From NCBI GenBank assembly GCA_964631295.1, contig CAZVXI010000001.1:1-43799 (forward strand): a stretch of DNA of 43,799 nt, read 5' to 3'. Source of the DNA: an uncultured Isosphaeraceae bacterium. GTDB taxonomy: Bacteria; Planctomycetota; Phycisphaerae; Phycisphaerales; SM1A02. The position numbers and the translations under genes were made by a program. Within the stretch, counting starts at the first letter, position 1; each line of letters begins with the position of its first letter. Under the pieces are notes generated by a model. It was not told the DNA's origin. It made no database searches and worked only from the letters and a program-made list of their open reading frames with translations. Below are positions 5,009 to 34,587 of this stretch, one piece after another.

Positions 5009-5032
5009 CGCTCTCTGCCTTATACTGCGGCG

Positions 5033-5974: not shown

Positions 5975-5982
5975 TGGAGAGA

Positions 5983-6507
5983 TCAGTCCTGCGAGTCGAA
6001 TCGCAGTTGCCCAGCGAACGCCGCCATTCGTCCGGTGAACGCCTCGAGCAGCCTTCTCGAATGTTTCGCGTTTTCCTCTCGGTCCGGAAAGAGCCCGATC
6101 GTGGCCGATGCGTTCCATATCTCGGATGCCGGTGCCGGCCTCACGACGAGTCGCCCTGGTCGTTCATCAAGAGTCATCAACGCAAACTCCCAGGAACCCG
6201 AAACCCGCGTCTGCGAGACAATGGCGAGTTCAGCATCGGCGACGGCCCAGGCCGCAGCACGCGGGACATCAATCCAACGGCCGCGAGCCGGGCCACGCTT
6301 CGGCGGGTCGGTTGCCTCATAATCGGCCACAAGACCCGCCAGTGCGCGTCGGATCTCGCTTGCGTGGACGTCTTCGACCGGCCTTGCGATGGCCTGATGC
6401 TCGCCTGTTGCACGTTGATTCGTCTCGACAGGCCGATATTGCGTCGGACCGCCGCAGCCCACCAGTGCTACCCCTGCCGCCAGGATTATCACGCCGAAAT
6501 GACGCAC
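5983..6507 (-). CDS. Hypothetical lipoprotein
   Basis: Lies within the long ORF 5983-6741. A GTG at 6507 is preceded by GGGAGA (6 nt spacer) and gives VRHFGVIILAAGVALVGC with a lipobox (LVGC). The 78 residues upstream in the long ORF look non-coding. Convergent with the ROK gene, 8 nt apart. Confidence 0.55.
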   Translation of the reverse strand: MRHFGVIILAAGVALVGCGGPTQYRPVETNQRATGEHQAIARPVEDVHASEIRRALAGLVADYEATDPPKRGPARGRWIDVPRAAAWAVADAELAIVSQTRVSGSWEFALMTLDERPGRLVVRPAPASEIWNASATIGLFPDREENAKHSRRLLEAFTGRMAAFAGQLRFDSQD

Positions 6508-6770
6508 AATTGATCTCCCGCCGATATTACACGATCGTGCTGATAACGCACTGCATTTCCAGACGATTGTCCGCGATAATGAACGAATATCCCTGTGAAG
6601 CCTGTGGTTCATCGGAGGTGCAGACGGTGTTTCCGGGGCAGTGTGCAATGGGTACTGGCACGAATTGCAGAACGTCTGTTTCATTGCGGGACCGAAGCCG
6701 ATATTGTTTCGATCTTCTCGGCTCACAGGTCGATTGTCCATGATACTTCAAGCGTCTGGAGACGCGGCCC

Positions 6771-15528: not shown

Positions 15529-15555
15529 GGTCAGTAAACTTCCTTCCGAAGGTGT

Positions 15556-17025
15556 CTACGAGAGTGGTGGCAACTGGCCCGCCCGCACGAATGCGTGTTC
15601 GTATAGATACAAACCGAAGAGTGCTGGCACCCATGCAGCCACGGGAACAACAAGCGCAACCACGACCGTGGCAAGCACACCTATGATCAGTCCATCGCGA
15701 TAGGCTTTCAACGGTCCGAGTCGGACGACCCCGAGGAATCCCGCCGCCTGTTTTGCGTTCTCAGTCGGATGCACCCGATAACGCTCCGCCCAAGAGAGCA
15801 GGCCATGCATCGCGACGACGCCGATAAACAGCAGCTTGAGCGTTGAAGTTGGCGCAACGATCAACAAGACCGCGCCGCCGCACAGCACGGCCTGGCACAG
15901 CAGGTGCCAGATCAGCAACTCACTCTCCCATAAGTCGCGCCCTTTGCACTGCGCGAACAGGAAAGCCGTATAGCCTGCGACCATGGCACCAAGCCCGGCA
16001 TTGATGCCACGAAGGAGATCTGCAATGCCCTCCAAGCCAGCCATCCGGGCGACGATCGATGCAGAAATCGTCCCGCAGAAAACGCCAAGAACAACCCCAC
16101 CGCGTACCAGCCAACTCCTCCAGTTTGGTCGGGTCAGTAGTCGGTAGAAGTATTGCGGCCGGGCGAGATCCTCCACCAGAAGCCCGAGCGTGACCAGCGT
16201 GAAAACGAGCGCGAGAACTTCCGGCAAATAGGCCTGCGTCCAGCCCGTCATACCAAATAGCGTTGCAAACGGCGCGAGCATCGCAGCACCGCTGGCTATT
16301 CCCTTCGTGACCAGATAGGCGGCCACTGGCCAACCCCACTCGACTCGATGCCCGATATCCAGCACGACACGCGAGGATGGCTCGGTCGGCACATCGGCTG
16401 GCCAATCCTCGGGTTTATCTGGCGGCCGATCAGACCAGATGTAGGTCTCAGGCCGCTCAGGCACGCCGGGGTTCAGAGCGACATCCGACGCTCCTTTGTA
16501 TCGAACGTTCGGCCCCGTCCCCTGTTCCGGCCGACGAACTCTCAGATCGTCTTCACCGCTGATCTGCGACACGCGCGACTCCGGATCATCGAAGTCGCCA
16601 GGAATGATGGCCCCAACGGGACACACGGTGACGCATGCAGGTTCCAATCCATCTTCTACACGGTGAGCACAAAAGTGGCACTTCTCGACTGCGCCGGAGT
16701 CGTCGTTCAGGTAGATCGCATCGTACGGGCAGGCCTGCATGCATGCCCGACACCCGATACACGCATCACGATCGATGTCGACGATGCCATCGGCGCGTTT
16801 CTCCAGCGCGTTTACCGGGCAGATCGTCACACATGGGGCATCTGAGCAGTGGTTACATCGCTGAACGAGGAAGTCGCGTTTGACCTCTGGAAATAACCCG
16901 AGCTCGACATATTTGACCGACGTCCGAAAGTTCCCCACCGGGACATTGTTCTCGGCCTTACAAGCGACCGTACAAGCGTGGCAGCCAATGCACGAGTCGT
17001 GATCGATGACAAACCCATACTGCAT
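15556..17025 (-). CDS. Fusion of a 4Fe-4S dicluster electron-transfer subunit (NrfC/PsrB-like) with an integral membrane (NrfD/PsrC-like) domain
   Basis: The N-terminal ~200 aa carry four CxxCxxCxxxCP-type ferredoxin motifs (CIGCHACTVACK, CNHCSDAPCVTICP, CIGCRACMQACP, CHFCAHR...CVTVCP). The C-terminal ~280 aa have about 8 hydrophobic helices. The start is uncertain: ATG at 17025 (MQYGFVIDHDSC, the usual N-terminus for this family) or GTG at 17064. Confidence 0.82.
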   Translation of the reverse strand: MQYGFVIDHDSCIGCHACTVACKAENNVPVGNFRTSVKYVELGLFPEVKRDFLVQRCNHCSDAPCVTICPVNALEKRADGIVDIDRDACIGCRACMQACPYDAIYLNDDSGAVEKCHFCAHRVEDGLEPACVTVCPVGAIIPGDFDDPESRVSQISGEDDLRVRRPEQGTGPNVRYKGASDVALNPGVPERPETYIWSDRPPDKPEDWPADVPTEPSSRVVLDIGHRVEWGWPVAAYLVTKGIASGAAMLAPFATLFGMTGWTQAYLPEVLALVFTLVTLGLLVEDLARPQYFYRLLTRPNWRSWLVRGGVVLGVFCGTISASIVARMAGLEGIADLLRGINAGLGAMVAGYTAFLFAQCKGRDLWESELLIWHLLCQAVLCGGAVLLIVAPTSTLKLLFIGVVAMHGLLSWAERYRVHPTENAKQAAGFLGVVRLGPLKAYRDGLIIGVLATVVVALVVPVAAWVPALFGLYLYEHAFVRAGQLPPLS

Positions 17026-17125
17026 GATGGGCAGTATAGCCCAACGAGCATGGCCCTCGTTCACCCATCTCAGCCGATCCCGAGAGCCGATAACCGCCGC
17101 CCCGACCGATCCCGAACACGATTGC

Positions 17126-17473: not shown

Positions 17474-18793
17474 CTATTGCGGGCAGTCGCCCCAACCGGC
17501 GAGAACGGCGAGCAGATCCGCGAGCCCGATGAAGCCGTCGGCATCGATATCGCCTGCACACCCCGTTGATGAGCCGCAACTGCCCCATTCGCTGAGCACG
17601 GTGAGCAGGTCGCCCAAGCCGATCATCTGATCGCCATCTGTATCGCCTTCGCACGGCGGCGGACCGTCCGGCTGCAGTTCGAACGGACCAAGGTCCACAT
17701 TCGGTTCGACAATCTCCGGATTATCCGGGTTGGCAAAGCGAGGATTGTGAGCAAGGTCCATCGTGATGTCGTCCGGAATAAACTCGTTCTCACCGGCATC
17801 AATGAGCGGCGAATCTGCTTTCAGATGAAAATCACCAGCTTCCGGATCAACGAATGCGGGGTTCACCTCGACATTCCCTTCCCCTTCCCAGCCACCTTGA
17901 ACGCACGAGTTGAGAATTGTCATCTCGCCGAGCGCGACCCCCATCTCGTCCGCCTCGTCCGGATCTCCATTGTCCCAGAAGATGCAGTTCATTGCCACAC
18001 CAACAGCTGAAGGGCCGATCACCTGGAAAGCCTCGCCGGAAGATGAGTTGGTCGCCTGGTTTTGTGAGAAAGTCGAGTTACTGATCTCGACAACGCTGTT
18101 GTGGTTGTAAATCCCACCGCAGAACCGCCCCTCGTTGTCGACAATAAGACAGTTCACGAACTCAGCACCACTCAACTCACGAAGCGACGCAGCACCTCCG
18201 GAGGCGAACCCATCACCGCGATTCGAACGGAACTCGACACTCACCAATCGCGGAAAACTCGAGTATGCATGGAGGCCACCACCGCCACCCGTGCCGCTCG
18301 CGTTGGCGACGTTGTTCTCAATCACGCAATCGAAGAGCCATGGATTGCCAGTCCAGACTGCAATCCCGCCACCCGCACCGGCCGAGTTGTTTTCGATGCG
18401 ACAGTTGCGAATCGTGGGGCTGGCAGACTGGACGAAAATGCCGCCACCGCGAATCAGGCCACCTGCATCGGTCCCTGTTCCACCAGTGACTGAGAAGCCG
18501 TCGAGGATGCTCTGCGGGCCCTCGAAGTTGACGAACAGGATGACGCTTCCCTCGTCGACAGATCCATCGATCACGGTTTCCGAGGCTCCCTCCGCTGCGC
18601 GTACTTCGATCCGCTTGCCACGAAAGTCAACCGACTCGCGATATACGCCCGGCGCGACAAGGACCAGATCCCCGTCTGTCGAGGCATCGATGGCACTCTG
18701 AATCGTGGAGAACTCGGCTGGCACATCCAGTTGATCAGCCATTGCGGGGCCGCCAACTGCGATACAAGCCGTGATTGCGAATGTCGTCCGCAT
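17474..18793 (-). CDS. Secreted right-handed parallel beta-helix repeat protein with two dockerin-like C-terminal segments
   Basis: The ATG at 18793 is preceded by GGGAGGG. Signal peptide MRTTFAITACIAVGGPAMA. Repeated beta-helix rungs (GGGIFV...NCRIENNSAGAGGGIAVW...CVIENNVA...GGGGLHAY...). C-terminus GDTDGDQMIGLGDLLTVLSEWGSC...GDIDADGFIGLADLLAVLAGWGDCPQ. Confidence 0.85.
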   Translation of the reverse strand: MRTTFAITACIAVGGPAMADQLDVPAEFSTIQSAIDASTDGDLVLVAPGVYRESVDFRGKRIEVRAAEGASETVIDGSVDEGSVILFVNFEGPQSILDGFSVTGGTGTDAGGLIRGGGIFVQSASPTIRNCRIENNSAGAGGGIAVWTGNPWLFDCVIENNVANASGTGGGGGLHAYSSFPRLVSVEFRSNRGDGFASGGAASLRELSGAEFVNCLIVDNEGRFCGGIYNHNSVVEISNSTFSQNQATNSSSGEAFQVIGPSAVGVAMNCIFWDNGDPDEADEMGVALGEMTILNSCVQGGWEGEGNVEVNPAFVDPEAGDFHLKADSPLIDAGENEFIPDDITMDLAHNPRFANPDNPEIVEPNVDLGPFELQPDGPPPCEGDTDGDQMIGLGDLLTVLSEWGSCGSSTGCAGDIDADGFIGLADLLAVLAGWGDCPQ

Positions 18794-19105
18794 AAGAAAT
18801 CCCTCCCACCGGTCAGCTGTCGTCGCGGCGAGGTACTCACAGAACCCATACGCCCAGACTTTCACCGAAGTTGCCTCAAGCCTCCGATTCCAAGATCAAC
18901 GCAACGAACCTGAAATCGACACTTCAAGCCCGCGATGGTGAAACTGCGCCCTTTGGCTGGATGAGGCAAAATCCAAGCGAATAGCCTGCAATAACAGCGA
19001 TCAGGTGGGAACCTGTTCTCGGACCATTACATGGGACACCGATCGGTGACTCAAGAACAAATGATACAACTGCACAGATTGTGGATAACTCTCGACAATC
19101 AGCCA

Positions 19106-19165: not shown

Positions 19166-22100
19166 TCACTTGATTGGACGATGCGGCTGATCGGGAGGGA
19201 AGATCTCGTCTCCGAGACCCGAATCGATCTGGTTCAGGAACCGACGCATCTGCTGAGGTGTCTGCGGGGCACCACCGTTCTCAAGGATGGGCTGATTGTT
19301 CGGGTCATACAGGATGACCGCGGGCTGAATGCCCATACCCACGAGCGACATACCGCCCGCCGCGTATGTGTCGCCGTCCTGTCCGGCACCGGTCAGCGTC
19401 AGGAACTTGGCTGAGATACCGGTCAGTGCAGCGGCCTGGCTGACGACGCCAGTGAGACCATTAACACTGCCATTACACTCCGTTGAGGCGACGCCGTCGA
19501 TCCGCGCCTTGGCGGTCGGTGACTGAAGCACTGAGACAATGAAGTTGTTCGGCAAGTCGTAGTTCCGCAGCAGAGTCTGATCCCAGCACGTGATGCAGCG
19601 GCGGGTGTTCGAGAACTTCGTCTCGTTCGTGTTCCACACATTGAACGCAGCCTTGGTCGTTACCGGCCCGGGTGAATTCATCGTGAAGTCCATGTCGAGG
19701 GGCATCAGCGTCAGGTCTTCATCAGACAGGACTGATACACCCGCAGCGATCGAGCTGAGCGCCATCGATGGCGGTGGGTTGAAGTTCAACTGCAACTGGT
19801 TGTAACCCGCGGCATAATCGAGGCCGTCGAGATTCAACACACCCGGCTCACCAAACTTGCCGCCATGCGGGATGAGGTCATCACACACACCGAACGCGTC
19901 TGCCTGGTACTCCCATGCGTAGGCCTGCCCGTAGTTGACGATTGTGGCTGCACCAGCGAGGTGGTTCCAGCGAATCTGCTCGTTGGAGTTATTCGTCGCC
20001 CAGAGGACAAGGAAACCACGCATCACACGTTCACCCGGACGTTCCGGATCAGGTCGGCCCGGCAGGCCGCCCATCGGCGGGTCAAGGACGTGCGCGAATG
20101 GTGACAGACCGCCGGCTGCGGGCTGGCCACTCTTCGCAGACCAGTATGTCGGCTGGTTACCAGTCAGCTGGAACGCATTATCCACGAAGTTCCAACCCGG
20201 GTGAGCCCGCTCGCCTGTTGCAGGGTCTGCCGGGATCGGCGGATCGCCGTTCACGAAGTAGAGTTGAACATAGACATCATCGCCGTAGTCATTGGTCAAC
20301 GCGATAAACGTATCCTGCAGAAGGTTGCCCTCATCGTCCCAGCGAATCTCGATCTTCGGGTAGATCAGCAGCGAGCCCTTCTCGTTGCGGACGCAGCGCG
20401 TCGGGCAATCGACTTCATCACATGTGAGACCGAATCCCAGGAAGTCGCCACCGTTGATTTGGTCACATTCCTCTGCAGTCACTTCGATACAGTCACCGCC
20501 TGGCAGGCAGCATGGCCCCACATCGCATTGAGCATCTGCACACAGGACGCCATCGCCCTGGAACACGCCATTGAACTCTTCTTCGCAGCAGATTTCTGCC
20601 ATCTCGATGCAGGTTCCATCCGGCAGACAGCAAGCGCCAAAGCCGCCGCACTGTGTGCCATCACCTTGGAAAGAGCCGCCCAGTTCATTGATGCAGCAGA
20701 TTTCCGCAACTTCAACACATGAACCATCCGGCAGACAGCACGCACCCGTGCCACCACAGACGGTGTCATCGCCCTGATAGCTGCCGCCCAGTTCGTTGAT
20801 GCAGCAGATTTCTGCAACTTCAACACATGAACCATCCGGCAAGCAGCAAGCGCCAGTGCCACCGCACACGGTGCCATCGCCCTGGAACGTGCCGCCGAAC
20901 TCTTCTTCGCAGCAGATTTCCGCCACTTCCACACACGAGCCGTCCGGGAGGCAGCAAGCGCCGAAGCCGCCGCACTGCGTGCCATCACCTTGGAACGTAC
21001 CGCCAAACTCATTGATGCAGCAGATTTCCGCCACTTCAACACATGAGCCATCTGGCAGGCAGCAGGCACCCGTGCCACCGCACACGGTGCCATCACCTTG
21101 ATAAACGCCGCCGAACTCGTTGATGCAGCAAATCTCTGCTACTTCAACACATGAGCCGTCAGGCAGACAGCATGCACCTGTGCCACCACATTCGGTGCCG
21201 TCGCCCTGATAGACGCCGCCAAACTCGTTGATGCAGCAGATCTCTGCTACTTCAACACATGAGCCGTCAGGCAGGCAGCATGCGCCAGTGCCACCGCATT
21301 CGGTGCCATCACCTTGGTAGGAACCGCCCAGATCCGCACAGCAAATCTCTGCCACTTCAACACATGAGCCGTCAGGCAAACAGCATGCACCTGTGCCACC
21401 ACATTCGGTGCCATCACCCTGATAGGAGCCGCCAAACTCGTTGATGCAGCAAATCTCTGCCACTTCAACACATGAGCCGTCAGGCAAACAGCATGCACCT
21501 GTGCCACCACATTCGGTGCCATCACCCTGATAAGAGCCGCCAAACTCATTGATGCAGCAGATCTCTGCCACTTCAACACATGAGCCGTCAGGCAGACAGC
21601 ATGCACCTGTGCCACCACATTCAGTGCCTTCGCCTTGGAAGGAGCCGCCGAACTCGTTGATGCAGCAGATCTCTGCGACTTCAACACATGAGCCATCCGG
21701 CAGGCAGCACGCACCCGTGCCACCACACTCGGTGCCATCACCTTGGAAGGAACCGCCGAACTCGTTGACGCAGCAGATCTCTGCGACTTCAACACATGAG
21801 CCATCCGGCAGGCAGCACGCGCCGGTGCCACCACACACGGTGCCGTCACCCTGGAAGGAACCGCCAGCAGCGAGGCAGCATGCTTCGGCAGTTACTGTGC
21901 ACGAACCGCCTGGCAGGCAGCACGCGCCGGTGCCACCACACACGGTGCCATCACCCTGGTAATCGCCACCAAACTCGTTAATGCAGCAGATCTCTGCGAT
22001 TTCGATACAAGAACCGTCCGGAAGGCAGCACGCGCCGGTGCCACCACACACGGTGCCGTCACCCTGATAAGAACCGCCGAACTCGTTGATGCAGCAGATC

Positions 22101-23887
22101 TCTGCCGCTTCAAGACATGAGCCGTCTGGAAGGCAGCACGCGCCGGTGCCACCACACACGGTGCCATCACCCTGGAACGAGCCGCCAAACTCGTTGATGC
22201 AGCAGATCTCTGCTACTTCAAGACATGATCCGTCCGGCAGGCAGCACGCGCCAAAGCCGCCGCACGTTGTGCCTTCACCCTGGAACGAACCACCAAGTTC
22301 GGTGCAGCAAAGCTCTGAGATTTCCAGGCACGAGCCATCGGGAAGGCAGCATGCTCCAGTCTCACCGCACGCCTGGCCGGGGAACCACGTTCCGCTTTGC
22401 TGAACGCACTCGATCTCGGAGGTCACAATGCACGAGCCGTCGGGCAGGCAGCATGCCGATTCAGTCGGGCGAAACTCGTAAATCACGGTGATTTTGCCCA
22501 CAGCGCGGTGCGGATCGCGAAGAACATCGCCCTTGCCAACACCCGCCGAAATCAAAGTTCCGATACCGCGGAGCGATGTCAGGAACGTGTCATCATCACC
22601 TTCGATTACGAAGTCAGCAAGCGGCGCTGTGATGCAGCCATCGTCCACTGCATCGGGTGCTGCTTCAAAGCACCACTGTTCGTTTGCTTCCGTGGTATTG
22701 TTGGCGTTGATTGTCTTGTCGCCATCACCGTTGTTGCAGCCACTGTCGATGCAAAAGCCCGGGAAGAAATACGGGCTTCGGAATGCCGTGAACTGACCGG
22801 GCTGGATAAACCCGCCAACACACTCCTCGCAGATCAGAAAGAACTGATCCGGCGCGACAAGCGAACCAACCGGGAACCCACCAAACAAGCCAATCGGGTC
22901 TCGCCAGATGTCGGGGAACTCATCGCCCGGACCGCCAGGAAGGCCGCCCGACGAGAAGTCCAGACCCGGCGCCTGAACATTATCGATCACGCCGTCGTCG
23001 TCTGTGAAGTTCGCGCGCATCTGCTCAACAATGAAGTTGGCGTCAGTCGTATCGACTGCAGCATCGTTGCCGCGGTTATCGAAGACCGCAACCAGAATAA
23101 CGCGGCCATCAACCATGATGCGAACACGCTCAAGCGTGCGTTCGTCGGATGTACCGGTGAGGAGATCAAACTTGTCGAACGTGAATTCGCGGTCCACAGC
23201 AAGCATCACGAAGTCAAAGAACTGGCACTGAACTTCCTGGGAAATTGCATCATCATCGGTCACCGGGCACGTGTTGCCTTCGCCACATTCGATGTTGGTT
23301 CCCTGGAAGAAGCCGCCCGCCAGATCACAGTCGTCGCGTGTCAGTGTCTGACAGGACCCATCGCTGAAGCAGCAGCCACCCGTGCCATTATCAATCGGAA
23401 AGGCCCAGAAGGTTTCATACGGATCATCAATCGAATCGCCGGGGCACTTGGAGCCGAAGCCCTGCCAGATGCCATCGGCCTCTTCACACTCGACGAGCGT
23501 CATGTTCGATTCACACGTGCCATCGCCGAGGATACAGGCACCATCGAGGCGGGTCGTGCCTGCGACATCGCAGATGATCTCATTGCACTGGATGTTGTCG
23601 CCGCGATACGAGCCGCCCATGGCTTCGCAATCCGCGGGTGTTTCCTGACTGCAGACCATGTCGCGCGTGATGGGGTCGAACACGCAGCAAGCCCCCAAGC
23701 ACGTCAAGTCCGCGCACAGGCTGCCGTTGCCATTGAAAAACCCACCCATTGCATTGCAGTCACCCTGTGTGAGTTCCATACAGGTGTCATCAGGAAGACA
23801 ACATGCCCCCTGACCGTACGCCTGTGGAGCGCAACACAACAGCACAAAGAGCGCTCCGATCATCAACAGAATTCGCGACGATGTCAT
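19166..23887 (-). CDS. Giant (about 1573 aa) secreted Cys-rich repeat protein ending in the shared A-B module
   Basis: The ATG at 23887 is preceded by GGGGAGA (8 nt spacer); the ORF track starts at a GTG at 23914. Signal peptide MTSSRILLMIGALFVLLCCAPQAYG. Next come four degenerate GACC...C...GG..G....C repeats, a ~270-aa unique region and 19 tandem 36-aa repeats. The A-B module spans 19166-20383 (EKGSLLIYPKIEIRW...LDP / LPGRPDPERPGERV...WNTNETKFSNTRRCITCWDQ...GKARIDGVAS). Confidence 0.9.
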   Translation of the reverse strand: MTSSRILLMIGALFVLLCCAPQAYGQGACCLPDDTCMELTQGDCNAMGGFFNGNGSLCADLTCLGACCVFDPITRDMVCSQETPADCEAMGGSYRGDNIQCNEIICDVAGTTRLDGACILGDGTCESNMTLVECEEADGIWQGFGSKCPGDSIDDPYETFWAFPIDNGTGGCCFSDGSCQTLTRDDCDLAGGFFQGTNIECGEGNTCPVTDDDAISQEVQCQFFDFVMLAVDREFTFDKFDLLTGTSDERTLERVRIMVDGRVILVAVFDNRGNDAAVDTTDANFIVEQMRANFTDDDGVIDNVQAPGLDFSSGGLPGGPGDEFPDIWRDPIGLFGGFPVGSLVAPDQFFLICEECVGGFIQPGQFTAFRSPYFFPGFCIDSGCNNGDGDKTINANNTTEANEQWCFEAAPDAVDDGCITAPLADFVIEGDDDTFLTSLRGIGTLISAGVGKGDVLRDPHRAVGKITVIYEFRPTESACCLPDGSCIVTSEIECVQQSGTWFPGQACGETGACCLPDGSCLEISELCCTELGGSFQGEGTTCGGFGACCLPDGSCLEVAEICCINEFGGSFQGDGTVCGGTGACCLPDGSCLEAAEICCINEFGGSYQGDGTVCGGTGACCLPDGSCIEIAEICCINEFGGDYQGDGTVCGGTGACCLPGGSCTVTAEACCLAAGGSFQGDGTVCGGTGACCLPDGSCVEVAEICCVNEFGGSFQGDGTECGGTGACCLPDGSCVEVAEICCINEFGGSFQGEGTECGGTGACCLPDGSCVEVAEICCINEFGGSYQGDGTECGGTGACCLPDGSCVEVAEICCINEFGGSYQGDGTECGGTGACCLPDGSCVEVAEICCADLGGSYQGDGTECGGTGACCLPDGSCVEVAEICCINEFGGVYQGDGTECGGTGACCLPDGSCVEVAEICCINEFGGVYQGDGTVCGGTGACCLPDGSCVEVAEICCINEFGGTFQGDGTQCGGFGACCLPDGSCVEVAEICCEEEFGGTFQGDGTVCGGTGACCLPDGSCVEVAEICCINELGGSYQGDDTVCGGTGACCLPDGSCVEVAEICCINELGGSFQGDGTQCGGFGACCLPDGTCIEMAEICCEEEFNGVFQGDGVLCADAQCDVGPCCLPGGDCIEVTAEECDQINGGDFLGFGLTCDEVDCPTRCVRNEKGSLLIYPKIEIRWDDEGNLLQDTFIALTNDYGDDVYVQLYFVNGDPPIPADPATGERAHPGWNFVDNAFQLTGNQPTYWSAKSGQPAAGGLSPFAHVLDPPMGGLPGRPDPERPGERVMRGFLVLWATNNSNEQIRWNHLAGAATIVNYGQAYAWEYQADAFGVCDDLIPHGGKFGEPGVLNLDGLDYAAGYNQLQLNFNPPPSMALSSIAAGVSVLSDEDLTLMPLDMDFTMNSPGPVTTKAAFNVWNTNETKFSNTRRCITCWDQTLLRNYDLPNNFIVSVLQSPTAKARIDGVASTECNGSVNGLTGVVSQAAALTGISAKFLTLTGAGQDGDTYAAGGMSLVGMGIQPAVILYDPNNQPILENGGAPQTPQQMRRFLNQIDSGLGDEIFPPDQPHRPIK
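20399..22462 (-). repeat. 19 in-frame tandem repeats of 105-120 bp (mostly 108 bp) encoding GACCLPDGSCVEVAEICCINEFGGSYQGDGTECGGT
   Basis: The period was checked directly: GTCAGGCAAACAGC recurs at 21371 and 21479 (108 bp apart). Units 21371-21478 and 21479-21586 differ at 3 of 108 nt. There are 6 Cys per 36-aa unit. The outer copies are more diverged than the central ones. Confidence 0.95.
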
Positions 23888-24490
23888 ATCAGGTATCTCC
23901 CCGCAGCTTGTCACACACCGATGTGTGATCGAACTGCAATTTTCCCCACGTGTTGTGGACCAAGAACTTCTTCACCGGCGAAAAGGCCGCAACCCTGACC
24001 AACAGCGCGCAATGACTTCGCCCTCGAGCCATTCCACCTTAGCGCATTGACCATGGTCACTTTCCACCCACTCCATTCGACCTGGGCCACTCCGCCCAGC
24101 GACTCTCCGCGATTTCATCGATGGTCCGGCGCGCTATGACGCGCGCTCGTCCTCGCGGATATCGGACATATATCACCAGAACACGCCGCCGATGTCAAGT
24201 AAAGACTTGGACTATCGGAACTTGTAGCGCGACATGAACTTCGGCAACTGTTCGATCGCGCACGCTGATCGACAGATCAGGCGAGCCGTCGACGTGAAAA
24301 CACTAACTGCATGGGATTTCGAGACTTATGAGGAGCTCGGCCTACGTTGCCACCGCGGATTTTCACCCGACATTGTTGACACAGATCCTTCCCTGCTTCG
24401 CAGCACTACCCAGTCTCACATCTGATGAAACAGCGCGCAATGGGGAGACGCCTAAAAGATGTCCACATGTCGCTTGTTAAGAGAGGCGAA

Positions 24491-24566: not shown

Positions 24567-26777
24567 TTACGGGTCGAGGATCGTCCACGGTGATACGCCG
24601 GCCGGGTTGCCTGATGCAGCAGACCAGAAAGTCGTCTGGTTGCCCGTCAGCAGAATCTCATTGTCAACCCAGTTCCAACCCGGGTGTTCGCAAATATCGT
24701 TCGGTGTGACTTCCAACATGGGGTCATCGCCGTTCACGAACATCATCTGAACGCGAACATCTTCACCGAAGTCATTGGTGAGTTGGATGAACGTATCCTG
24801 GGTGACTTCGCCAAACTCGTTGAAGCGCACCTCGACCTTCGAGAACACAAGCAGGCTCCCCTTCTCGAAGACACTGCCACGTGCCACCGCACCGTCACCA
24901 CGACCAATCCCATCAAAGGTGGGTCGCGGGCGCGTGGGCTGTGTTCCACCGACAATTTCGTCTGGCGGTGCGAGCACGTCATAACTGATTGCAGCCGTTC
25001 GTTCACCCATGCCCACGAGGTTCATCGCAGATGCGTCGCCTCCGGGAACGCCCGGCGTTCCTCGAGCCACCGGTGGCAAAATGCGCTTTGTGGCAACACC
25101 GAGCAGGGACGCAGCCACTGAATCAGTGCATTCATCGGCAGCAACACCCGAGATTCGAGCCTTGCCAACCGTTGTCTGGAGATTGCTGATCAGGAAGTTG
25201 TTCGGCACGGATGCGTTGTCCGCAAACTGACTCAGGAGTGTTTCATCCCAGCATGTAATGCAGCGTCGTGTATTCGAGAACTTCGTCTCGTTCATGTTCC
25301 ACACATTCACCGACACCTTCGTGGTTGTCGGCCCGGCAGTGTTCATCGTGAGGTCTGCATCGAGCACGTGCAGCGTGAGGTCGGTTTCCGTGGTCACGAT
25401 CGCATCAAGACTCGAGACCATCGCGGCACCCGGCGCGACGAAGTTGAGCAACAACTCGTCGTAGGTGGCTGCATACTCGTCCCCATCAATGTTCAGCACA
25501 CCCGGCGTGCCGGACTGCTGTCCATGCGATGCTGCCGACGGCACGACTGGATATGCCATCGCACCGTATTCCGAAGCAGACGCTCCTCGATAATCAACGA
25601 CTGTCGCATGACCGGACAGGTGATTCCATCGAATCTCCTGATTGTTATTGTCAACGGCCCACGCAAGTACGTAACCGCGAATCACCCGATCTGATGACCC
25701 ATCCGGGTCGGGACGGCCTGGAAGTTCGCATGGTGAAGCGAGGAACTTAATCGTGATATCGCCCAGACCGGTCTGTCCATCGAACCCGGCAACCTGAATC
25801 AGGTATGACTGTCCCTCAACGGCCTGAAACTGAACAGCAGATTGAGCAGTCAACCCACGACTTTCTTCTGCAGTACAGATTGTACTATCGTCGTTACACT
25901 CGATCAGTGGTGGCAGCGGATCACAAGAATCGCCATCGTACACGCCCAGCGTCGTATCAAAGAGGCTCCCGCACAGGTCAACCTGCACAGTGCCAGTTGC
26001 AGGCGAGGTGAAGACGTACCAGATGTCATTGTTCTCGCCGAAAGTGCAACTGCTCGGCCCCCCATCCGCACCTTGCGTGTTGAACGGCTGATCAGTCACG
26101 AGGCCGATGGCCTCTGCATCGAAACAGTCATCGTTTGCGGGCGGTGCCAGCTCGGCACCTTCGAGTTCGAGATCATATTCGCCACACCCGAGGATGCTGG
26201 TGAGTTCACCGGACCATCCGATCAGTGGATCGGATGCACCCGCGCCAGTGGGACCAGTCTGGCCCATCGAAGGCAGGTCGAAGATGGAACCGGATTCGCT
26301 CACCGGCTCGCGCGAGTCGGCCACGATCGCAATGATGTATTCACCTGGGCCGGGAAGCACCTCGCACCCGTCGATCACAACCGGCGGAGAACCGTTGGGC
26401 GGCGGATCGAACTCGCCCCGCGCCTCCGAAAATGCTTCATCCGCACCGATCAAGCCGAATCCATCAAGGGAGAATATATACAATCGTGCGTCAAAGCACG
26501 GGCTGAACTCGATGAAGAACTCGCAAGGATCGTCGATGGTGATAATGAAGAGATCTTCAAAGTCACTTGGGTCGAGGCCGCCGCCACCGCGAGCGGTCGC
26601 TTCGAGGCCTTCGAGTCGACCACTGATCGATGTTACTTCTCCGCTGCCGCGCGTCCGCTGGGCGGTCCCGGACAGATTGCCAGCATCGCCATCCTCGACC
26701 CATTCCGGCCCGGCAAGAACACACGGCGCGATTGCCGCTGTCAGCGCGCCTGCCACCATCCACGGTTGCAAACCCAT
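24567..26777 (-). CDS. Secreted protein with two N-terminal jelly-roll-like modules and a circularly permuted (B-A) copy of the shared module
   Basis: The ATG at 26777 is preceded by AGGAGGGG. Signal peptide MGLQPWMVAGALTAAIAPCVLAG. The N-terminus has GDAGNLSGTAQ...DFEDLFIITIDD and ANDDCFDAEAI...DIWYVF...CNDD...SYLIQVAGF segments, which look like pre-peptidase-C-terminal (PPC) domains from memory only. Then B (25724 downward: LPGRPDPDGSSDRVIRGY...WNMNETKFSNTRRCITCWDE...GKARISGVAA...NLVGMG), a ~25-aa linker and A (24570-24866: EKGSLLVFSKVEVRF...HPGWNWVDN...LTGNQTTFWS...VSPWTILDP-stop). Confidence 0.85.
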   Translation of the reverse strand: MGLQPWMVAGALTAAIAPCVLAGPEWVEDGDAGNLSGTAQRTRGSGEVTSISGRLEGLEATARGGGGLDPSDFEDLFIITIDDPCEFFIEFSPCFDARLYIFSLDGFGLIGADEAFSEARGEFDPPPNGSPPVVIDGCEVLPGPGEYIIAIVADSREPVSESGSIFDLPSMGQTGPTGAGASDPLIGWSGELTSILGCGEYDLELEGAELAPPANDDCFDAEAIGLVTDQPFNTQGADGGPSSCTFGENNDIWYVFTSPATGTVQVDLCGSLFDTTLGVYDGDSCDPLPPLIECNDDSTICTAEESRGLTAQSAVQFQAVEGQSYLIQVAGFDGQTGLGDITIKFLASPCELPGRPDPDGSSDRVIRGYVLAWAVDNNNQEIRWNHLSGHATVVDYRGASASEYGAMAYPVVPSAASHGQQSGTPGVLNIDGDEYAATYDELLLNFVAPGAAMVSSLDAIVTTETDLTLHVLDADLTMNTAGPTTTKVSVNVWNMNETKFSNTRRCITCWDETLLSQFADNASVPNNFLISNLQTTVGKARISGVAADECTDSVAASLLGVATKRILPPVARGTPGVPGGDASAMNLVGMGERTAAISYDVLAPPDEIVGGTQPTRPRPTFDGIGRGDGAVARGSVFEKGSLLVFSKVEVRFNEFGEVTQDTFIQLTNDFGEDVRVQMMFVNGDDPMLEVTPNDICEHPGWNWVDNEILLTGNQTTFWSAASGNPAGVSPWTILDP

Positions 26778-26926
26778 CACAGCCCCTCCTGATTCACCGG
26801 CGGCTGTACACAGGTAATGCTGCGAGACGAGACAAGCACAGCAATCACTCAGCCACCTGTGGAGGGTGCAAGCCCCTCCGGACTCATATCTAAACGGATT
26901 TCCTGTCCAGATTCAAGACAGGTTCG

Positions 26927-26986: not shown

Positions 26987-29656
26987 TTATTGACCGCGCT
27001 CCTCAGCCGGAAGCAATCGCTCATACTTGATCACCGCGTCTTGTCGGCCCATGCCGATCAACTCGCGGCCAGCCTTCGCAACCGCCAGCTCACCGTTGAT
27101 CGTCAGCTCACGCATGGCCACACCCAGCAGAGCAGCATCCACTGTTTCGGCACCGAGGATCAGATCACATCCAACGGAAGCAACGCCATCGATCCTGGCC
27201 TTGCCAACGAACGTCTGGAGGTTCGCCAGCAGGAAGTTGTTCGGCCACTGGTAACTGGACAGCAGCGACTGATCCCAGCACGTCAGGCATCGCGTCGTGC
27301 CCGAGAACTTCGTCTCGTTCATGTTCCAAATCTGGAACACGGCTCGCGTCGACAACGGACCAGCCGAGTTCATCGAGAAATCTGCATCGACGACATGCAG
27401 TGTGAGATCATTGCTTGACACAACCTGCTGGCCGGGCTTGCTGTACCCGAGCGAGCCGACGGCATCGAAGTTGAACTGCAACTGGTCGTACGCCTGTGCG
27501 TACTCGAAACCGTTGAGGTTCAACGTTCCAGGCTCACCAATCACGTCACCGTGCGCACCGGCAGTCGAAATCGCTCGCGCTGAATACGCGTTGTATTCCC
27601 AGGCGCTGCCGTGTGCGTAGTCAACGACTGTCGCGTTGGCAGCAAGGTGATTCCACCGAATCTGCTCGTTGTCCGCACTGACTGCGAAGGCGATGATGAA
27701 GCCCCGAAGAACACGCTCACCCGGACGTTCCGGATCGGGTCGACCAGGCAACACACCTGGATCGAGAACCGTGAACGGTGACACACCTTTGGGGTTGCCT
27801 GTGAGCACCGACCAGTATGCCGGCTCGTTGCCGGTCAACGTGATTTCGTTGTCAACCCAGTTCCATCCGGGGTGTTCGCGTTCATCAATCGTCGCGGGCG
27901 TCGGTTCATCACCATTCACGAAGAACATCTGCACGCGGACATCTTCGGGATAGTCGTTGGTCAGTGCGACAAACGTATCCTGCAGGATGTTGCCTTGGTT
28001 GTCCCAGCGCAGTTCAACCTTCGAAAGGATCAGCAGCGAGCCTTTTTGCGTTCCGATACGCAGCTCAGGTGCCGGGCAGGCATCGCCAATACCATCTCCA
28101 TCTGAATCTTCCTGACCAGGGTTGGGCTCGAAGACGCAGTTGTCTTCACAATCGAGCACGCCGTCACCATCCGTGTCGGTATCTTCATCGCCACAGCCAC
28201 AGACGCCAGGATCAATCTTGTTCGGATCATCCGGGCAGCCGTCGTTGCAATCTGCTACGCCGTCACCATCAGTGTCCGTGTCGGGCACGCCACAACCGCA
28301 GTCGCCAGGCTCGAGTTTGTCCGGATCGTTCGGGCAGTCGTCGTTGCAGTCTGCTACGCCGTCGCCGTCAGTATCCGTGTCGGGCACGCCGCAGCCGCAG
28401 TCACCGGGCTCGACTTTGTCCGGATCGTTGGGGCAGTCGTCGTTGCAGTCTGCTACGCCGTCACCATCAGTATCCGTGTCGGGCACGCCACAACCGCAGT
28501 CACCGGGCTCGACTTTGTCCGGATCGTTGGGGCAGTCGTCGTTGCAGTCTGCTACGCCGTCACCATCGGTATCTGTGTCAGGATTGCCGCACCCGCACTG
28601 GCCGGGCGCGATCTTGTCCGGATCATCCGGGCACAAGTCGTCACAGTCGAGTGTTCCGTCACCGTCACTGTCGATGTCCGGCGCGCCGCAACCGCAGACG
28701 CCAGGGTCAACCTTGTTTGGGTCATCTGGGCAGCCATCAACGCAATCCGCTACGCCGTCACCATCGGTATCTGTGTCAGGATTGCCGCACCCGCACTGGC
28801 CGGGCGCGATCTTGTCCGGATCATCCGGGCAACCGTCGTTACAGTCTGCAACGCCATCGCCATCAGAATCGATATCCGGCTCACCACATCCACATTCTCC
28901 CGGTTCGAATTTCTCCGGATCAAACGGGCAGCCATCACAGACATCGCCGAAGCCGTCGCCATCGGAATCCAACTGATCCGCGTTTGAGTCGTTCGGGCAG
29001 TTATCGCACGGCGCTTCGATGCCGTCGTTATCTGCATCGCCAAGGCATCTGGTTCCATCACCGCGATACGTGCCGCCGAGATTCGCGCAGTCGCTCTCGG
29101 TCGCATCTGTGCAAGTACCATCGTCGAAGCAGCACGCGCCGAGATTGCATTCAACTTCCGCGCAGGAGTCAAACTCATCACCAAAGTATGTGCCGCCTGC
29201 CGCAAGACAGTCGTCCTCGGTCAGGAGTTCGCAGTTGCCTGCGCTGATACAGCACGGCCCCTCTTCATCCGGGCAGGTGAATGGCTCGCAGATGGTGCCG
29301 TCGCCAAAGTACAAACCGCCCTGGGCGTCGCATTCGTCTTCAGTCGTCAGCTCGCAGGGAAGGTCCGGAACGCAGCACGCGCCAAGTGGCAGGCCTGCAC
29401 AGTTCACGTCCTCACAAGCAGTGAAGCTCCCCTGGTACTCGCCGCCGGCCTCGAAGCACTCGCTGAGCGTCATGACTTCGCAGGAGCCATCTTCGAAACA
29501 ACAGGCGCCTTCTGGCGCCGTCGAGAAGGCAGCGAGCACACCGACCTGCATCCATGCCTCGCCTCTGGCTTGAGCCACTGCAAAGCATTGCACGAACACA
29601 AGCGCACTCACCAGCGCAAAGACACCCCGAAAGTTTTTGTACATCATCTCCGCCAT
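26987..29656 (-). CDS. Secreted protein: Cys-rich GACC repeats, a thrombospondin type-3-like calcium-binding repeat array, then the shared A-B module
   Basis: Signal peptide (MAEMMYKNFRGVFALVSALVFVQCFAVAQA); the start is either ATG 29656 or ATG 29647. Four GACCFEDGSCEVMTLSECFEAGGEYQG..C-type repeats, about 9 TSP3-like units and the A-B module at 26987-28048 (QKGSLLILSKVELRW...TVLDP / GVLPGRPDPERPGERV...WNMNETKFSGTTRCLTCWDQ...GKARIDGVAS). Confidence 0.9.
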   Translation of the reverse strand: MAEMMYKNFRGVFALVSALVFVQCFAVAQARGEAWMQVGVLAAFSTAPEGACCFEDGSCEVMTLSECFEAGGEYQGSFTACEDVNCAGLPLGACCVPDLPCELTTEDECDAQGGLYFGDGTICEPFTCPDEEGPCCISAGNCELLTEDDCLAAGGTYFGDEFDSCAEVECNLGACCFDDGTCTDATESDCANLGGTYRGDGTRCLGDADNDGIEAPCDNCPNDSNADQLDSDGDGFGDVCDGCPFDPEKFEPGECGCGEPDIDSDGDGVADCNDGCPDDPDKIAPGQCGCGNPDTDTDGDGVADCVDGCPDDPNKVDPGVCGCGAPDIDSDGDGTLDCDDLCPDDPDKIAPGQCGCGNPDTDTDGDGVADCNDDCPNDPDKVEPGDCGCGVPDTDTDGDGVADCNDDCPNDPDKVEPGDCGCGVPDTDTDGDGVADCNDDCPNDPDKLEPGDCGCGVPDTDTDGDGVADCNDGCPDDPNKIDPGVCGCGDEDTDTDGDGVLDCEDNCVFEPNPGQEDSDGDGIGDACPAPELRIGTQKGSLLILSKVELRWDNQGNILQDTFVALTNDYPEDVRVQMFFVNGDEPTPATIDEREHPGWNWVDNEITLTGNEPAYWSVLTGNPKGVSPFTVLDPGVLPGRPDPERPGERVLRGFIIAFAVSADNEQIRWNHLAANATVVDYAHGSAWEYNAYSARAISTAGAHGDVIGEPGTLNLNGFEYAQAYDQLQFNFDAVGSLGYSKPGQQVVSSNDLTLHVVDADFSMNSAGPLSTRAVFQIWNMNETKFSGTTRCLTCWDQSLLSSYQWPNNFLLANLQTFVGKARIDGVASVGCDLILGAETVDAALLGVAMRELTINGELAVAKAGRELIGMGRQDAVIKYERLLPAEERGQ
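28075..29045 (-). repeat. About 9 tandem 99-bp coding repeats (33 aa): PDTDTDGDGVADCNDDCPNDPDKVEPGDCGCGV (TSP3-like)
   Basis: D-x-D-x-DGDG-x-x-DC-x-D-x-CP-x-DP acidic calcium-loop pattern, each unit closed by PG.CGCG. Three central units are identical or nearly identical at the protein level. The 33-aa periodicity is also visible in the antisense shadow ORF 28122-28976. Confidence 0.9.
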
Positions 29657-29750: not shown

Positions 29751-30845
29751 TTATGGACAAATCAGCCCCCAATTCGAGAGTACCTCAAGCAAGTCGGCAA
29801 GATTCACGACATTATCGGAGTTCGAATCCCCCGGACACGGCGCTGTGGGTTCGCAGCCTGCCTGGAGTTCGTAGCACCCCATGTCCACGACGAGGCCAAG
29901 AGAGGCAACGCCGCTATCCACAGTTGCCGGATCATTCACCCCTCGAGGTTCACCACCCACATCCTCAAGGAACGAATCGATCAACTGCGAGTTCGCTGCA
30001 TCGATGCATGGCGAACCGGCGTTCAATCGCAGGTTTGCCCCGCTGACAAAGTCCGGATCAGCATCGATGTTTCCGTTTCCCGGAGCACCGCCGGTACCCT
30101 GAATGTTGCTGTAACTGGCTGAAAGAGTCGGTTCCTGGAGATTGCCCGGATTCTGGTCGTTGAGCACGACGCCACCGCCGGCGTTGTCCCAGACGATACA
30201 GTTACTCAATGTCACACCTGAGAGATCGTCGTTCACGTGCACGCCCCCACCAGAGGAAGCGATGTTGTTCGCGATGGTGCAGTTGATCAGAGTCAATGCA
30301 CCGAACGAGATCGACACCCCGCCGCCGTTACCGGTCGCCACGTTATTCGTGATTTCACAGTTGAGAATCCGCGCACCGATCGCACTGGCCGCAGAGATAC
30401 CGCCGCCGACTGTCGCGATGTTGTCGGTGATGATGCAGTTCTGGACAGTAATGCCGGCATTACTAATGAACACGCCGCCGCCTGGTCCATCGGCACCCCG
30501 CGTGACCTGCCCGCCCGTCCCACCCGTGACGGTGAACCCGTCAAGGAAGGTCGAGTTGGCGTTCTGAATCCCGTCAACGACCACGGCTGCTCCAGCACCA
30601 GCGGCGTCAATCGTCGTCAGCGTCGGGCCTGCCGTCGCAACAATACGCAGGTTCAGATTCTCGAAGTTCAGCGGGCCGTATGTACCAGGTCCGACAAAAA
30701 TCGTATCGCCCCCACTTGCCATCGTGTCGATCACTTCCTGGATCGTGGCAGCATCACCGGGAACAAACCAGTCCGCAGCCCGTGCTTGGGACGCTGCAAT
30801 AAGCGCGCACGAGCCAACGAACGCGACAGACATCTTGCGATTCAT
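29751..30845 (-). CDS. Secreted right-handed parallel beta-helix repeat protein with one dockerin-like C-terminal segment
   Basis: The ATG at 30845 is preceded by GGAGAAAGG. Signal peptide MNRKMSVAFVGSCALIAASQARA. Beta-helix rungs (GGGVFISNAGITVQNCIITDNIATVGGGISA...NCEITNNVATGNGGGVSI...NCTIANNIASSGGGVHV). C-terminus CPGDSNSDNVVNLADLLEVLSNWGLICP. Confidence 0.85.
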   Translation of the reverse strand: MNRKMSVAFVGSCALIAASQARAADWFVPGDAATIQEVIDTMASGGDTIFVGPGTYGPLNFENLNLRIVATAGPTLTTIDAAGAGAAVVVDGIQNANSTFLDGFTVTGGTGGQVTRGADGPGGGVFISNAGITVQNCIITDNIATVGGGISAASAIGARILNCEITNNVATGNGGGVSISFGALTLINCTIANNIASSGGGVHVNDDLSGVTLSNCIVWDNAGGGVVLNDQNPGNLQEPTLSASYSNIQGTGGAPGNGNIDADPDFVSGANLRLNAGSPCIDAANSQLIDSFLEDVGGEPRGVNDPATVDSGVASLGLVVDMGCYELQAGCEPTAPCPGDSNSDNVVNLADLLEVLSNWGLICP

Positions 30846-30911
30846 GGGTAACACCTTTCTCCTGCAACCTCCGCGCGATCCCCTCAGATCGCCACGTGAT
30901 GCCACTTTCTT

Positions 30912-33423: not shown

Positions 33424-34587
33424 TTAGCGACCACGACGCGGACGGATTGCGTCGACGATTTCATCCGGACCACCCGCGAGGGCGTCGTACTGGATGGTGG
33501 CCGACTCAACACCCATACCGACCAGGTTCGAGCCTGCAGCTGAGAGACCAGCTTCCATGACGATGAGCTTGTGGGAGATGCCGAGCATCGGCAGAGCTTC
33601 CGACGTCAGGAAGTCGTCACATTCGAAGGCAGCGGTGCCATCGATGCGAGCCTTGCCAGCCGCGGTCTGAATGTTCTGCAGAAGGAAGTTGTTCGGGATG
33701 AACGCGTTATCTGCATACTGGCTCAGCGGGGTCTGGTCCCAGCAGGTGATGCAACGGCGGGTGTTCGAGAACTTGGTCTCGTTCATGTTCCACACGTTGA
33801 TCGTGGCCTTCGTGCGTCGGGGGATGCCGTCCATACGGAGGTCGGCGTCGACGAGGTGAAGGGTCAGGTCGGTGTCAACAACGATCGCACCCGTCGGCGG
33901 GAACAGTTGGCTGACGAGCGGGGCACCCGGGGCAAAGAAGTTGAGCAGCAGTTCGTTGTACGGCTGCGCGTAACCCTGGGCGGTACCGTCCATGTTGATG
34001 GTGCCATCAGCAGCGACTGCGGCACCGTGGGGCACACCGCTACCGACCTGCGACGACCATGCGTTGTACTCGTAGGAAGTACCAAGCTGGTAGTTCACAG
34101 TCATGCCGCTACCACTGAGGTGGTTCCAGCGGATGGGCAGGTTGTCGAAGTCGACAGCCCATGCCATGGCATAGCCACGGTACACGAGGTTGCCGAAATC
34201 GTCGACGATCGGCGGGCCAGCGGAGCTGAACGGAGAGACGTTGCCCGAACCCACGCCGTCACCTGCCGGGTTGCCGTTGTGCGACGACCAGAAGATGGGC
34301 TGGTTTGCGGTCAGCGTGATCTGCGTGTCCACGTTGGTCCACGAGTCGCCATTGATGAAGTAAAGCTGAACGTCAACGTCTTCGTTGAAGTCGTTGGTCA
34401 GCGACAGGAACGTGTCCTGAATGACCTGACCAAACGGGTCCACGATGACTTCAATCTTCGAGAAGATAACGAGACTGCCCTTCTCGGAAGAGCTGACACG
34501 ATCCTGTTCGGCGTTTGCCGAAGCGGGCATGAGCATTGTGGCTGCGATGCCGCAAGCTGCGATGCCAAGAACTGATTTCTTATTCAT
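33424..34587 (-). CDS. Stand-alone copy of the shared A-B module (signal peptide plus module only, 387 aa)
   Basis: ATG at 34587. Signal peptide MNKKSVLGIAACGIAATMLMPASANA, then directly SSSEKGSLVIFSKIEVIV...TNDFNEDVDVQLYFINGD...IRWNHLSGSGMTVNY...WNMNETKFSNTRRCITCWDQ...GKARIDGTAAFEC...NLVGMG...PDEIV. It lacks the LPGRPDPERPGE loop found at the A/B junction of the other copies. Confidence 0.85.
   Translation of the reverse strand: MNKKSVLGIAACGIAATMLMPASANAEQDRVSSSEKGSLVIFSKIEVIVDPFGQVIQDTFLSLTNDFNEDVDVQLYFINGDSWTNVDTQITLTANQPIFWSSHNGNPAGDGVGSGNVSPFSSAGPPIVDDFGNLVYRGYAMAWAVDFDNLPIRWNHLSGSGMTVNYQLGTSYEYNAWSSQVGSGVPHGAAVAADGTINMDGTAQGYAQPYNELLLNFFAPGAPLVSQLFPPTGAIVVDTDLTLHLVDADLRMDGIPRRTKATINVWNMNETKFSNTRRCITCWDQTPLSQYADNAFIPNNFLLQNIQTAAGKARIDGTAAFECDDFLTSEALPMLGISHKLIVMEAGLSAAGSNLVGMGVESATIQYDALAGGPDEIVDAIRPRRGR

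Follow-up and report, generated by a model that had tools for sequence, protein, structure and literature searches.

Four genes on the minus strand of the 43,799-nucleotide stretch of DNA analyzed here (from an uncultured Isosphaeraceae bacterium; hereafter the window) encode proteins that share a module of ~370 residues, as revealed by the listing of open reading frames (ORFs), BLASTP and profile mapping. In three of these paralogs part A of the module precedes part B, whereas in the protein encoded at 24567-26780 B comes first and the chain ends at the very point where A would otherwise pass into B. Sequence comparisons support the view that the C-terminal ~370-residue module of this protein is a genuine circular permutant of the canonical module of its paralogs. 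In our judgment it is very likely that the gene encodes a functional, secreted, adhesin-like protein and that its permuted module arose by duplication and truncation. The four genes are:

33424..34587, minus strand: stand-alone canonical paralog of 387 residues, signal peptide then A-B (BLASTP, AlphaFold2 model)
26999..28051, minus strand: canonical A-B module at the C-terminus of the 889-residue paralog o26987 (gene 26987-29656), profile positions 32-389 at residues 536-886
19271..20398, minus strand: canonical A-B module at the C-terminus of the 1582-residue paralog o19166 (gene 19166-23914), profile positions 28-393 at residues 1173-1548
24567..26780, minus strand: permuted 737-residue protein in the order signal peptide, N1, N2, B, linker, A (ORF listing, BLASTP)

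The reversed order had been proposed in a first-pass annotation of the window and was confirmed when BLASTP of the 737-residue ORF returned two non-colinear matches for each of the three paralogs. Part B is matched by residues 349-619, at 51% identity for the stand-alone paralog (E 2e-78), 48% for o26987 (E 1e-71) and 49% for o19166 (E 3e-70), and residues 634-737 match part A in all three (48-56% identity, E 2e-24 to 2e-37), so the C-terminal part is indeed homologous to A. The reciprocal homology of N- and C-terminal segments by which circular permutants are recognized was thus found, profile positions 122-396 being followed by 26-136. Local alignment to a single mature stand-alone paralog scored 639 (query 349-619) compared with 853 for a doubled copy, against which the single continuous diagonal anticipated for a self-concatenated 387-residue paralog did appear: the alignment ran unbroken over query 349-737 (353 aligned residues, 55% identity) and spanned the junction between the copies. 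Doubling the modules of o26987 and o19166 raised the scores from 617 to 848 and from 617 to 878, respectively, and part A alone scored 239 against the stand-alone paralog, compared with 32 ± 4.9 for 200 shuffles.

The permuted protein has 737 residues when translated from a GTG codon at 26780 and 736 from the ATG at 26777. Part B, first placed at 25724, begins slightly earlier in the reading direction, its match starting at residue 349-351; a linker between B and A does exist, as first described, but is ~27 rather than ~25 residues long. The parts of the gene and its immediate downstream region are given below, where P and four digits denote a retrieved protein and L and three digits a retrieved locus:

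26709..26780, minus strand: probable Sec signal peptide, residues 1-24 (MMGLQPWMVAGALTAAIAPCVLAG), from reading of the sequence
26145..26714, minus strand: passenger domain N1, residues ~23-212 (BLASTP to other module proteins)
25737..26144, minus strand: passenger domain N2, residues 213-348, PPC / galactose-binding-like (sub-threshold PF23759 match, BLASTP)
24951..25736, minus strand: part B, residues 349-610, SPCELPGRPDP to ...AAISYDVLAPPDEIV, profile positions 122-396 (BLASTP to three paralogs)
25728..25730, minus strand: codon of Cys351, at the module's new N-terminus and three residues ahead of PGR, specific to B-A proteins (cysteine survey)
24870..24950, minus strand: linker, residues 611-637, connecting what was the C-terminus of B with what was the N-terminus of A (low model confidence, paralog alignment)
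24570..24869, minus strand: part A, residues 638-737 (FEKGSLL...SPWTILDP), profile positions 26-136 (BLASTP to three paralogs)
24690..24692, minus strand: codon of Cys697, in the part A loop immediately ahead of HPGWN, a residue that may form a disulfide with Cys351
24567..24569, minus strand: TAA stop right after ...LDP, a terminus that recurs in P0011, P0012, P0173 and the L002 ORF
24494..24538, minus strand: terminator-like hairpin with an 11-bp stem (24538-24507), a 10-nt loop and a U-rich tail (24506-24494) (sequence, RNA fold)

Passenger N1 matches no Pfam family. By BLASTP it is related to domains that precede canonical modules in P0074 (E 1e-22), P0010 and P0008 and a module permuted at another site (class P2, below) in P0181 (E 3e-27), and to four copies in P0041. 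Passenger N2 scored 24.5 bits against PF23759 (E 3.4e-5), under the 27-bit gathering cut-off. It is likely to be homologous to the PPC / GBD_T9SS_assoc domains (PF04151, PF23759), because its BLASTP matches of 1e-10 to 1e-19 fall in repeats of P0043-P0052, most of which bear one or the other domain.

End and integrity of the permuted gene

The 737-residue ORF ends in ...GVSPWTILDP followed by TAA, exactly at the A/B junction, whereas in the canonical copies (G)xxPGRPDP comes next. The first-pass annotation had taken a strong terminator as support for a genuine stop. The hairpin is real: it lies 29 nt past the stop and combines an 11-bp perfect stem with the tail UUCUCUCCUUUUGC (-19.7 kcal/mol, z = -3.9 versus shuffles). 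Its U-tract, UUCUCUCCUUUU, is interrupted, and because the loop measures 10 nt it was not reported by a terminator consensus scan. The stop does appear genuine, but the stronger evidence is the conservation of the terminus in other genomes. Six further B-A proteins were found in unrelated metagenomes: P0011 and P0012, encoded by neighboring genes on a 21-kb Joint Genome Institute (JGI) metagenome contig (L001), the product of one gene in a Planctomycetota metagenome-assembled genome (MAG; L002), and the cluster representatives P0141, P0159 and P0173. In all B-A proteins B opens at C-x-x-PGR and A closes at ...LDP with 0-3 extra residues, and the stop codons of three relatives (two in L001, one in L002) were observed in the DNA.

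Both halves of the window protein also look maintained. Among the 102 family-conserved positions, defined as at least 85% conserved among 112 canonical units, the B-A protein retains 89 (28/32 in A and 61/70 in B), whereas canonical units retain a mean of 95.7 (minimum 80) and the stand-alone paralog of the window 81. This pattern suggests that both halves are under purifying selection.

We weighed the possibility that the gene is an artefact or in decay, the product of mis-assembly between paralogs or a frameshifted or truncated pseudogene of an A-B-A-B or A-B ancestor, and consider it extremely improbable. Four paralogs and long internal repeats in one window could mislead an assembler, and the exact 737-residue protein was absent from the 5.8-billion-protein collection searched. 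However, the window paralogs are too divergent for a mis-join (45-55% protein identity and at most 85% DNA identity in any 60-nt window), and the ORF runs uninterrupted for 737 codons, stops where six independent B-A proteins stop, keeps the conserved positions and is followed by the hairpin. Moreover, a tblastn search of the 650 bases beyond the gene gave no sign of a leftover B, nor was any remnant of A detected upstream of B or of either half elsewhere in the window. Taken as sequence evidence, these features indicate that 24567-26780 is very likely neither an assembly error nor a pseudogene.

Topologies and predicted structure of the module family

For none of the four paralogs did Pfam-A or NCBIfam produce a match on the module. 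When 1.84 billion cluster representatives were searched with a profile, 1,726 proteins were recovered at E <= 1e-3, each standing for a cluster at 50% identity, and 664 at E <= 1e-30. In GTDB species genomes we found 53 loci, nearly all in MAGs of Phycisphaerae or other Planctomycetota, with nine or more module loci in the MAG Bpl_8; no locus or protein in the collections searched exceeded 50% identity over the module. Three loci (L052-L054) lie outside Planctomycetota, in Syntrophobacteraceae and deltaproteobacterial MAGs, and encode shorter relatives of 277-407 residues that lack profile stretches ~85-101 (L054) or ~84/91-158 (L052, L053) and may represent a minimal or ancestral form. A survey of 55 proteins found that the passengers ahead of the module are adhesin-like (HYR, Dicty_CTDC, VWA, NIDO, NHL, SpaA, SdrD_B and PKD). 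Our guess, which we offer with low confidence, is that the module acts as an extracellular binding or anchoring scaffold for such passengers; its NGD and ND motifs are conserved, which raises the possibility of calcium dependence. A literature search on circular permutation in Planctomycetes yielded nothing on the module family.

We mapped the profile on 192 retrieved proteins (the best of the 1,726 clusters), of which 186 matched the module and were classed as follows:

Canonical A-B: 115 of 186
Tandem A-B-A-B: 20 of 186 (P0001-P0005 and most of P0053-P0069)
P1 (B-A): 6 of 186, cut at profile position 136/137, ending ...SPFTILDP
P2: 22 of 186, cut at 83/90, inside A after three strands, ending ...YFVNGDPP..P
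P3: 10 of 186, cut at 244/246, ending ...GSxALSHPxxR
P4: 5 of 186, cut at 264/270, ending ...DLTLW..KDLR
Insertion: 4 of 186, with a large insert within the module
Other: 4 of 186 (P0049, partial; P0067 and P0069, tandems scored as split; P0145, a partly truncated tandem)

Permuted modules thus make up 43 of the 186, at four distinct loop sites. The termini are sharp within each class, which rules out random truncation at contig ends, and stops were confirmed in DNA for P1 (L001, L002), P2 (L003, L004, L006, L007, L009) and P3 (L020, L048). All four cut sites lie between predicted strands, and the P1 and P3 cuts (stand-alone residues 125/126 and 232-234) adjoin the two internal loops predicted with the lowest confidence in the model described below. 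The loop of the P2 cut is also where the insertion forms P0083, P0088 and P0128 accommodate their insert: the first three strands stand at the N-terminus, followed by a passenger of 160-760 residues and then the remainder of the module. In the P2 proteins P0100, P0142 and P0149 the passenger is C-terminal, whereas in most other permuted members the module is C-terminal to the passenger. At L007, two overlapping ORFs in different frames (5347-6855 and 6632-7732) jointly make up one canonical gene with a break in the P2-cut loop, the first encoding the passenger and the first three strands and the second the remainder of the module; this could be a frameshift error, a pseudogene or a split gene.

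The first-pass annotation had predicted A-B-A-B intermediates in related genomes, and the 20 tandems among the 186 best representatives bear this out, as do intact tandem ORFs at the genomic loci L005 and L008. The sole partly truncated form seen is P0145, in which A-B is followed by a unit without its first three strands; no A-B-A or B-A-B form was present among the 192 proteins and 54 loci. Parts of the module also occur by themselves. ORFs of ~200 residues hold only its last third (profile positions 253-397) at L049 (3986-4585), L050 (2-607), L051 (2-631) and L053 (1-555), and L046 (563-4894) encodes a protein of 1444 residues with part B and no detectable part A.

AlphaFold2 predicted the stand-alone A-B paralog, on an alignment of 19 stand-alone homologues, to be a compact all-beta protein, disordered only in the signal peptide and the last 16 residues, with a predicted local distance difference test score (pLDDT) of 81.2 and a predicted template modelling score (pTM) of 0.80. 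For the permuted form we submitted residues 346-737 aligned with B-A proteins and with tandems, which contain B-A in their middle, and obtained a pLDDT of 86.5 and a pTM of 0.86 (five models, pLDDT 83.9-86.5), with only model residues 266-292 (protein residues 611-637, the linker) below a pLDDT of 50. The module appears in these models as an all-beta unit of ~22 strands. B has 16 secondary-structure elements and A has 6, each with a single counterpart in the other model, in permuted order, and the permuted model has one additional hairpin, in a loop, without counterpart in the stand-alone paralog. With pTM values of 0.80-0.86, the prediction places A and B in a fixed position relative to each other. 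The earlier proposal that A and B pack as one fold is thereby upheld as a structural prediction, with the linker alone disordered. Adjacent N- and C-termini, which that proposal included, are not required for permutation: in every permuted or tandem member the last strand is bridged to the first by at least ~25-30 flexible residues.

The B-A proteins have in common a cysteine three residues before PGR and another 1-5 residues before HPGWN, both present in 7/7 of them and together in 0/159 canonical or tandem units; the cysteine before HPGWN occurs alone in 2/115 canonical units. In the window protein these residues are Cys351 and Cys697, and we infer from this distribution that a disulfide between them probably pins the new N-terminus to part A.

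Foldseek found no global fold match for either model in the PDB, nor for the B-A model in BFVD (template modelling (TM) score at most 0.25, query-normalised), and a profile search of PDB sequences found no relative of the module below E 0.2. Matches to arrestin, VP2 of infectious bursal disease virus (IBDV), SIDT2 and a phage tail protein were dismissed as generic two-sandwich resemblance.

Origin of the permuted order

The model of permutation by duplication predicts functional doubled intermediates (PMC3320104). The route suggested at first, tandem duplication followed by loss of both outer halves, is supported by the abundance of A-B-A-B relatives, P0145 being the one partly truncated form seen. 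In neighbor-joining trees (simple distance) the two units within many tandems are sisters, which indicates that duplications recur, whereas the distant units of P0056, P0058, P0063 and P0066 suggest fusion of neighboring paralogs. Same-strand arrays of module genes are common (L028, L008, L006, L004) and favor the fusion of genes as well as unequal recombination: L028 has, at ~720-6674, four complete stand-alone genes plus a portion of a fifth, two P2 genes form part of the array at L006 and two tandem-module genes are adjacent at L008.

The linkers bear on the same question. In the window protein, the first part of the linker resembles the C-terminal tail of the stand-alone paralog in the alignment of the four paralogs (PDEIVGG..RPRP versus PDEIVDAIRPRRGR), the remainder expected if the tail of one B was fused to the head of the next A. 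In P0012 (L001, 8000-9322), residues 285-334, between B and A, hold GRRAASTPAPVALGALGLAGGG, which resembles a decayed signal peptide and is the expected trace of the fusion of two adjacent signal-peptide genes. As a general sign of fusion, signal-peptide remnants in linkers were rejected, only the linker of P0012 fitting the pattern.

We propose that the permuted gene arose in three steps. Tandem duplication, or fusion of adjacent paralogs, would have yielded ...A-B-linker-A-B; the first A would then have been lost, with N2 now in its place; and the last B would have been lost through a stop after LDP. Judging from the AlphaFold2 models, the resulting protein would make B first, then the disordered linker of ~27 residues and then A, and would adopt the same compact structure, with its new termini located where a surface loop normally connects A with B (...LDP | GxxPGRPDP). 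With the termini there, passengers N1 and PPC-like N2 would leave the module at the A/B loop and not at the old N-terminus, and the cysteine pair exclusive to B-A proteins would tie the new N-terminus to part A.

Several findings weigh against this account. The window contains no remnant of a lost A or B, so the duplication route is drawn from the relatives and not from the locus itself, and the identity of the fold in both orders is a prediction, from the order of secondary-structure elements and the high pTM. The occurrence of the last third of the module alone, and of B without A at L046, implies that the module is partly modular. In the trees, monophyly of the B-A proteins was recovered in 0/200 bootstraps; the window B-A protein grouped with its own canonical paralogs and P0009 (70% for the full module, 81% for part B), and rare residues link it to the window paralogs in 11 cases and to other B-A proteins in 2.

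Partial modularity is most relevant to domain shuffling, or fission and fusion, in which A and B would be independently folding domains fused in either order. Fission and fusion is an accepted route to permutation (PMC3320104), and beyond the solitary ~200-residue pieces and L046, the long disordered linker between B and A speaks for it, as does the combination of N1 with canonical, P1 and P2 modules, a sign of frequent recombination of parts within the family. Nevertheless, we regard this explanation as distinctly unlikely. No A-only protein or gene occurs among the 192 proteins and 54 loci, a sample that takes in the top 150 representatives of the family, the solitary pieces at profile positions 253-397 do not correspond to halves A and B, which fission and fusion would call for as separate entities, and full A-B-A-B tandems are abundant. 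The P2 cut shifts three strands and the P3 cut one extra strand, too little for independent domains. A fixed arrangement of A and B is predicted, and the B-A-specific cysteine pair would tether the beginning of B to a loop in A.

The tree topology raises a different question, namely how often permutation by duplication and truncation produced the B-A order. Independent origins at the same loop, at least three and one of them in the window lineage, with convergent acquisition of the cysteine pair, are a serious possibility, to which we give somewhat less than even chances. Besides the grouping of the window protein with its own paralogs, P0011, P0012 and P0173 form a clade at 99% and P0141 pairs with the canonical P0165 at 71%, the boundaries of B-A proteins vary slightly (LDP, LDPGE, LDPGDGQ), and the sister units in many tandems show that duplications recur. 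Recent gene conversion among the window paralogs leaves no trace at the DNA level and was rejected: identity at third codon positions of identical residues reaches at most 55-67%, compared with a background of 30-50%. On the other hand, a cysteine pair that all 7 B-A proteins possess and none of 159 other units does is most simply explained by one origin. Over profile positions 185-244 the window B-A protein is nearer to the clade of P0011 than to the window paralogs, and it has the loss of W189 (SASEY) in common with that clade. The distances are saturated at 45-60% identity and were analyzed by simple-distance neighbor joining only, and ancient gene conversion between paralogs of the same genome would yield an identical tree. 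Among the other classes, P3 and P4 are each monophyletic and P2 is scattered. We conclude that there was either a single B-A origin followed by homogenization with local paralogs, or several origins that each gained the cysteine pair.

Gene surroundings and known systems

The genes around the module paralogs encode further secreted proteins (beta-helix proteins with dockerin-like ends, FG-GAP and PA14 proteins). A dockerin-like motif, D..DG.V...DLL.VL..WG.C, ends four secreted proteins of the window (2140-3228, 3221-5008, 17474-18865 and 29751-30905), and the tandem-module protein P0001 likewise ends in two dockerin-like repeats; a shared surface-attachment system may be involved. In the 1582-residue paralog a 108-nt unit is repeated 15.6 times with 82% identity (20619-22296, minus strand, inside gene 19166-23914) and encodes cysteine-rich repeats of ~36 residues, GACCLPDGSC.E.AEICCINEFGGS.QGDGT.CGGT; long ORFs on the opposite strand of this region (e.g. 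22397-23998) are probably by-products of the repeat and of high GC content. The 889-residue paralog contains 7.8 copies of a 99-nt unit (28158-28933, minus strand, inside gene 26987-29656) that encode thrombospondin-type-3-like calcium-binding repeats, DTDGDGVADCNDDCPNDPDK.EPGDCGCG.P, with partial matches to PF02412 and NF047638. Adjoining this island of surface-protein genes, and bearing no relation to the permutation, a molybdopterin oxidoreductase (923 residues) is encoded beside a fused 4Fe-4S / NrfD-type membrane subunit (502 residues) at 12757-17064 (minus strand).

A broader reading of the family, which we put forward tentatively and regard as doubtful, is that of a permutation-tolerant extracellular scaffold in which the point of chain entry and exit is itself selected. 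Passengers attached at the old N-terminus, at the four permutation loops or within a loop insertion would set the display geometry of adhesin-like domains; the same loops would have been opened repeatedly and independently from a standing pool of tandems; and compensating changes, such as the B-A cysteine pair, would have followed. If so, the family would be among the richest natural records of new topologies, with canonical, doubled and permuted stages all extant. Few natural families display every stage of textbook permutation by duplication, as this one does, and it makes testable which loops tolerate new termini, whether the same site is used recurrently and whether compensating changes such as a new disulfide arise. 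It has no Pfam or NCBIfam model at present, and about one quarter of its members would be overlooked by a linear profile or broken up into pieces.

Beta-sandwich proteins are known to include natural permutants, for example concanavalin A relative to other legume lectins, and the 1,3-1,4-beta-glucanase of Fibrobacter relative to that of Bacillus. The module resembles them as a beta-sandwich that tolerates new termini in surface loops, but no sequence or fold relation was found (Foldseek TM at most 0.25, query-normalised), and concanavalin A is permuted post-translationally, whereas the permutation of the module lies in the gene. A structural parallel, limited to about one third of the module, is the ASRT/TM1070 sandwich: 1nc7 resembles one subdomain of the A-B model (TM 0.75, target-normalised, ~155 columns) and 2ii7-2ii9 reach TM 0.5-0.59 against the B-A model, at 8-13% identity and with no sequence-level relationship found.

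By analogy, the module recalls the C-terminal domains of the type IX secretion system (T9SS), autotransporter barrels and 'choice-of-anchor' domains, since it is usually C-terminal in long adhesin-type secreted proteins and has many paralogs per genome. Unlike these anchors, with which no homology was found, it also stands alone behind a signal peptide, can precede dockerin-like repeats (P0001) and can have passengers at its C-terminus or inserted within it.

Circular permutation by duplication and truncation is a known phenomenon, described for DNA methyltransferases (Jeltsch 1999; Bujnicki 2002) and for saposin/swaposin (reviewed in PMC3320104); the large secreted family of Planctomycetota is undescribed. 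As in those systems, homologous segments are swapped, tandem intermediates exist in the same family, several permutation classes occur in one family and the new termini lie in loops. In contrast to them, the module is an extracellular all-beta non-enzyme, canonical and permuted paralogs are adjacent in one genome, loop insertions occur at the site of one permutation class, and the permutation shifts the point at which the passenger is attached.

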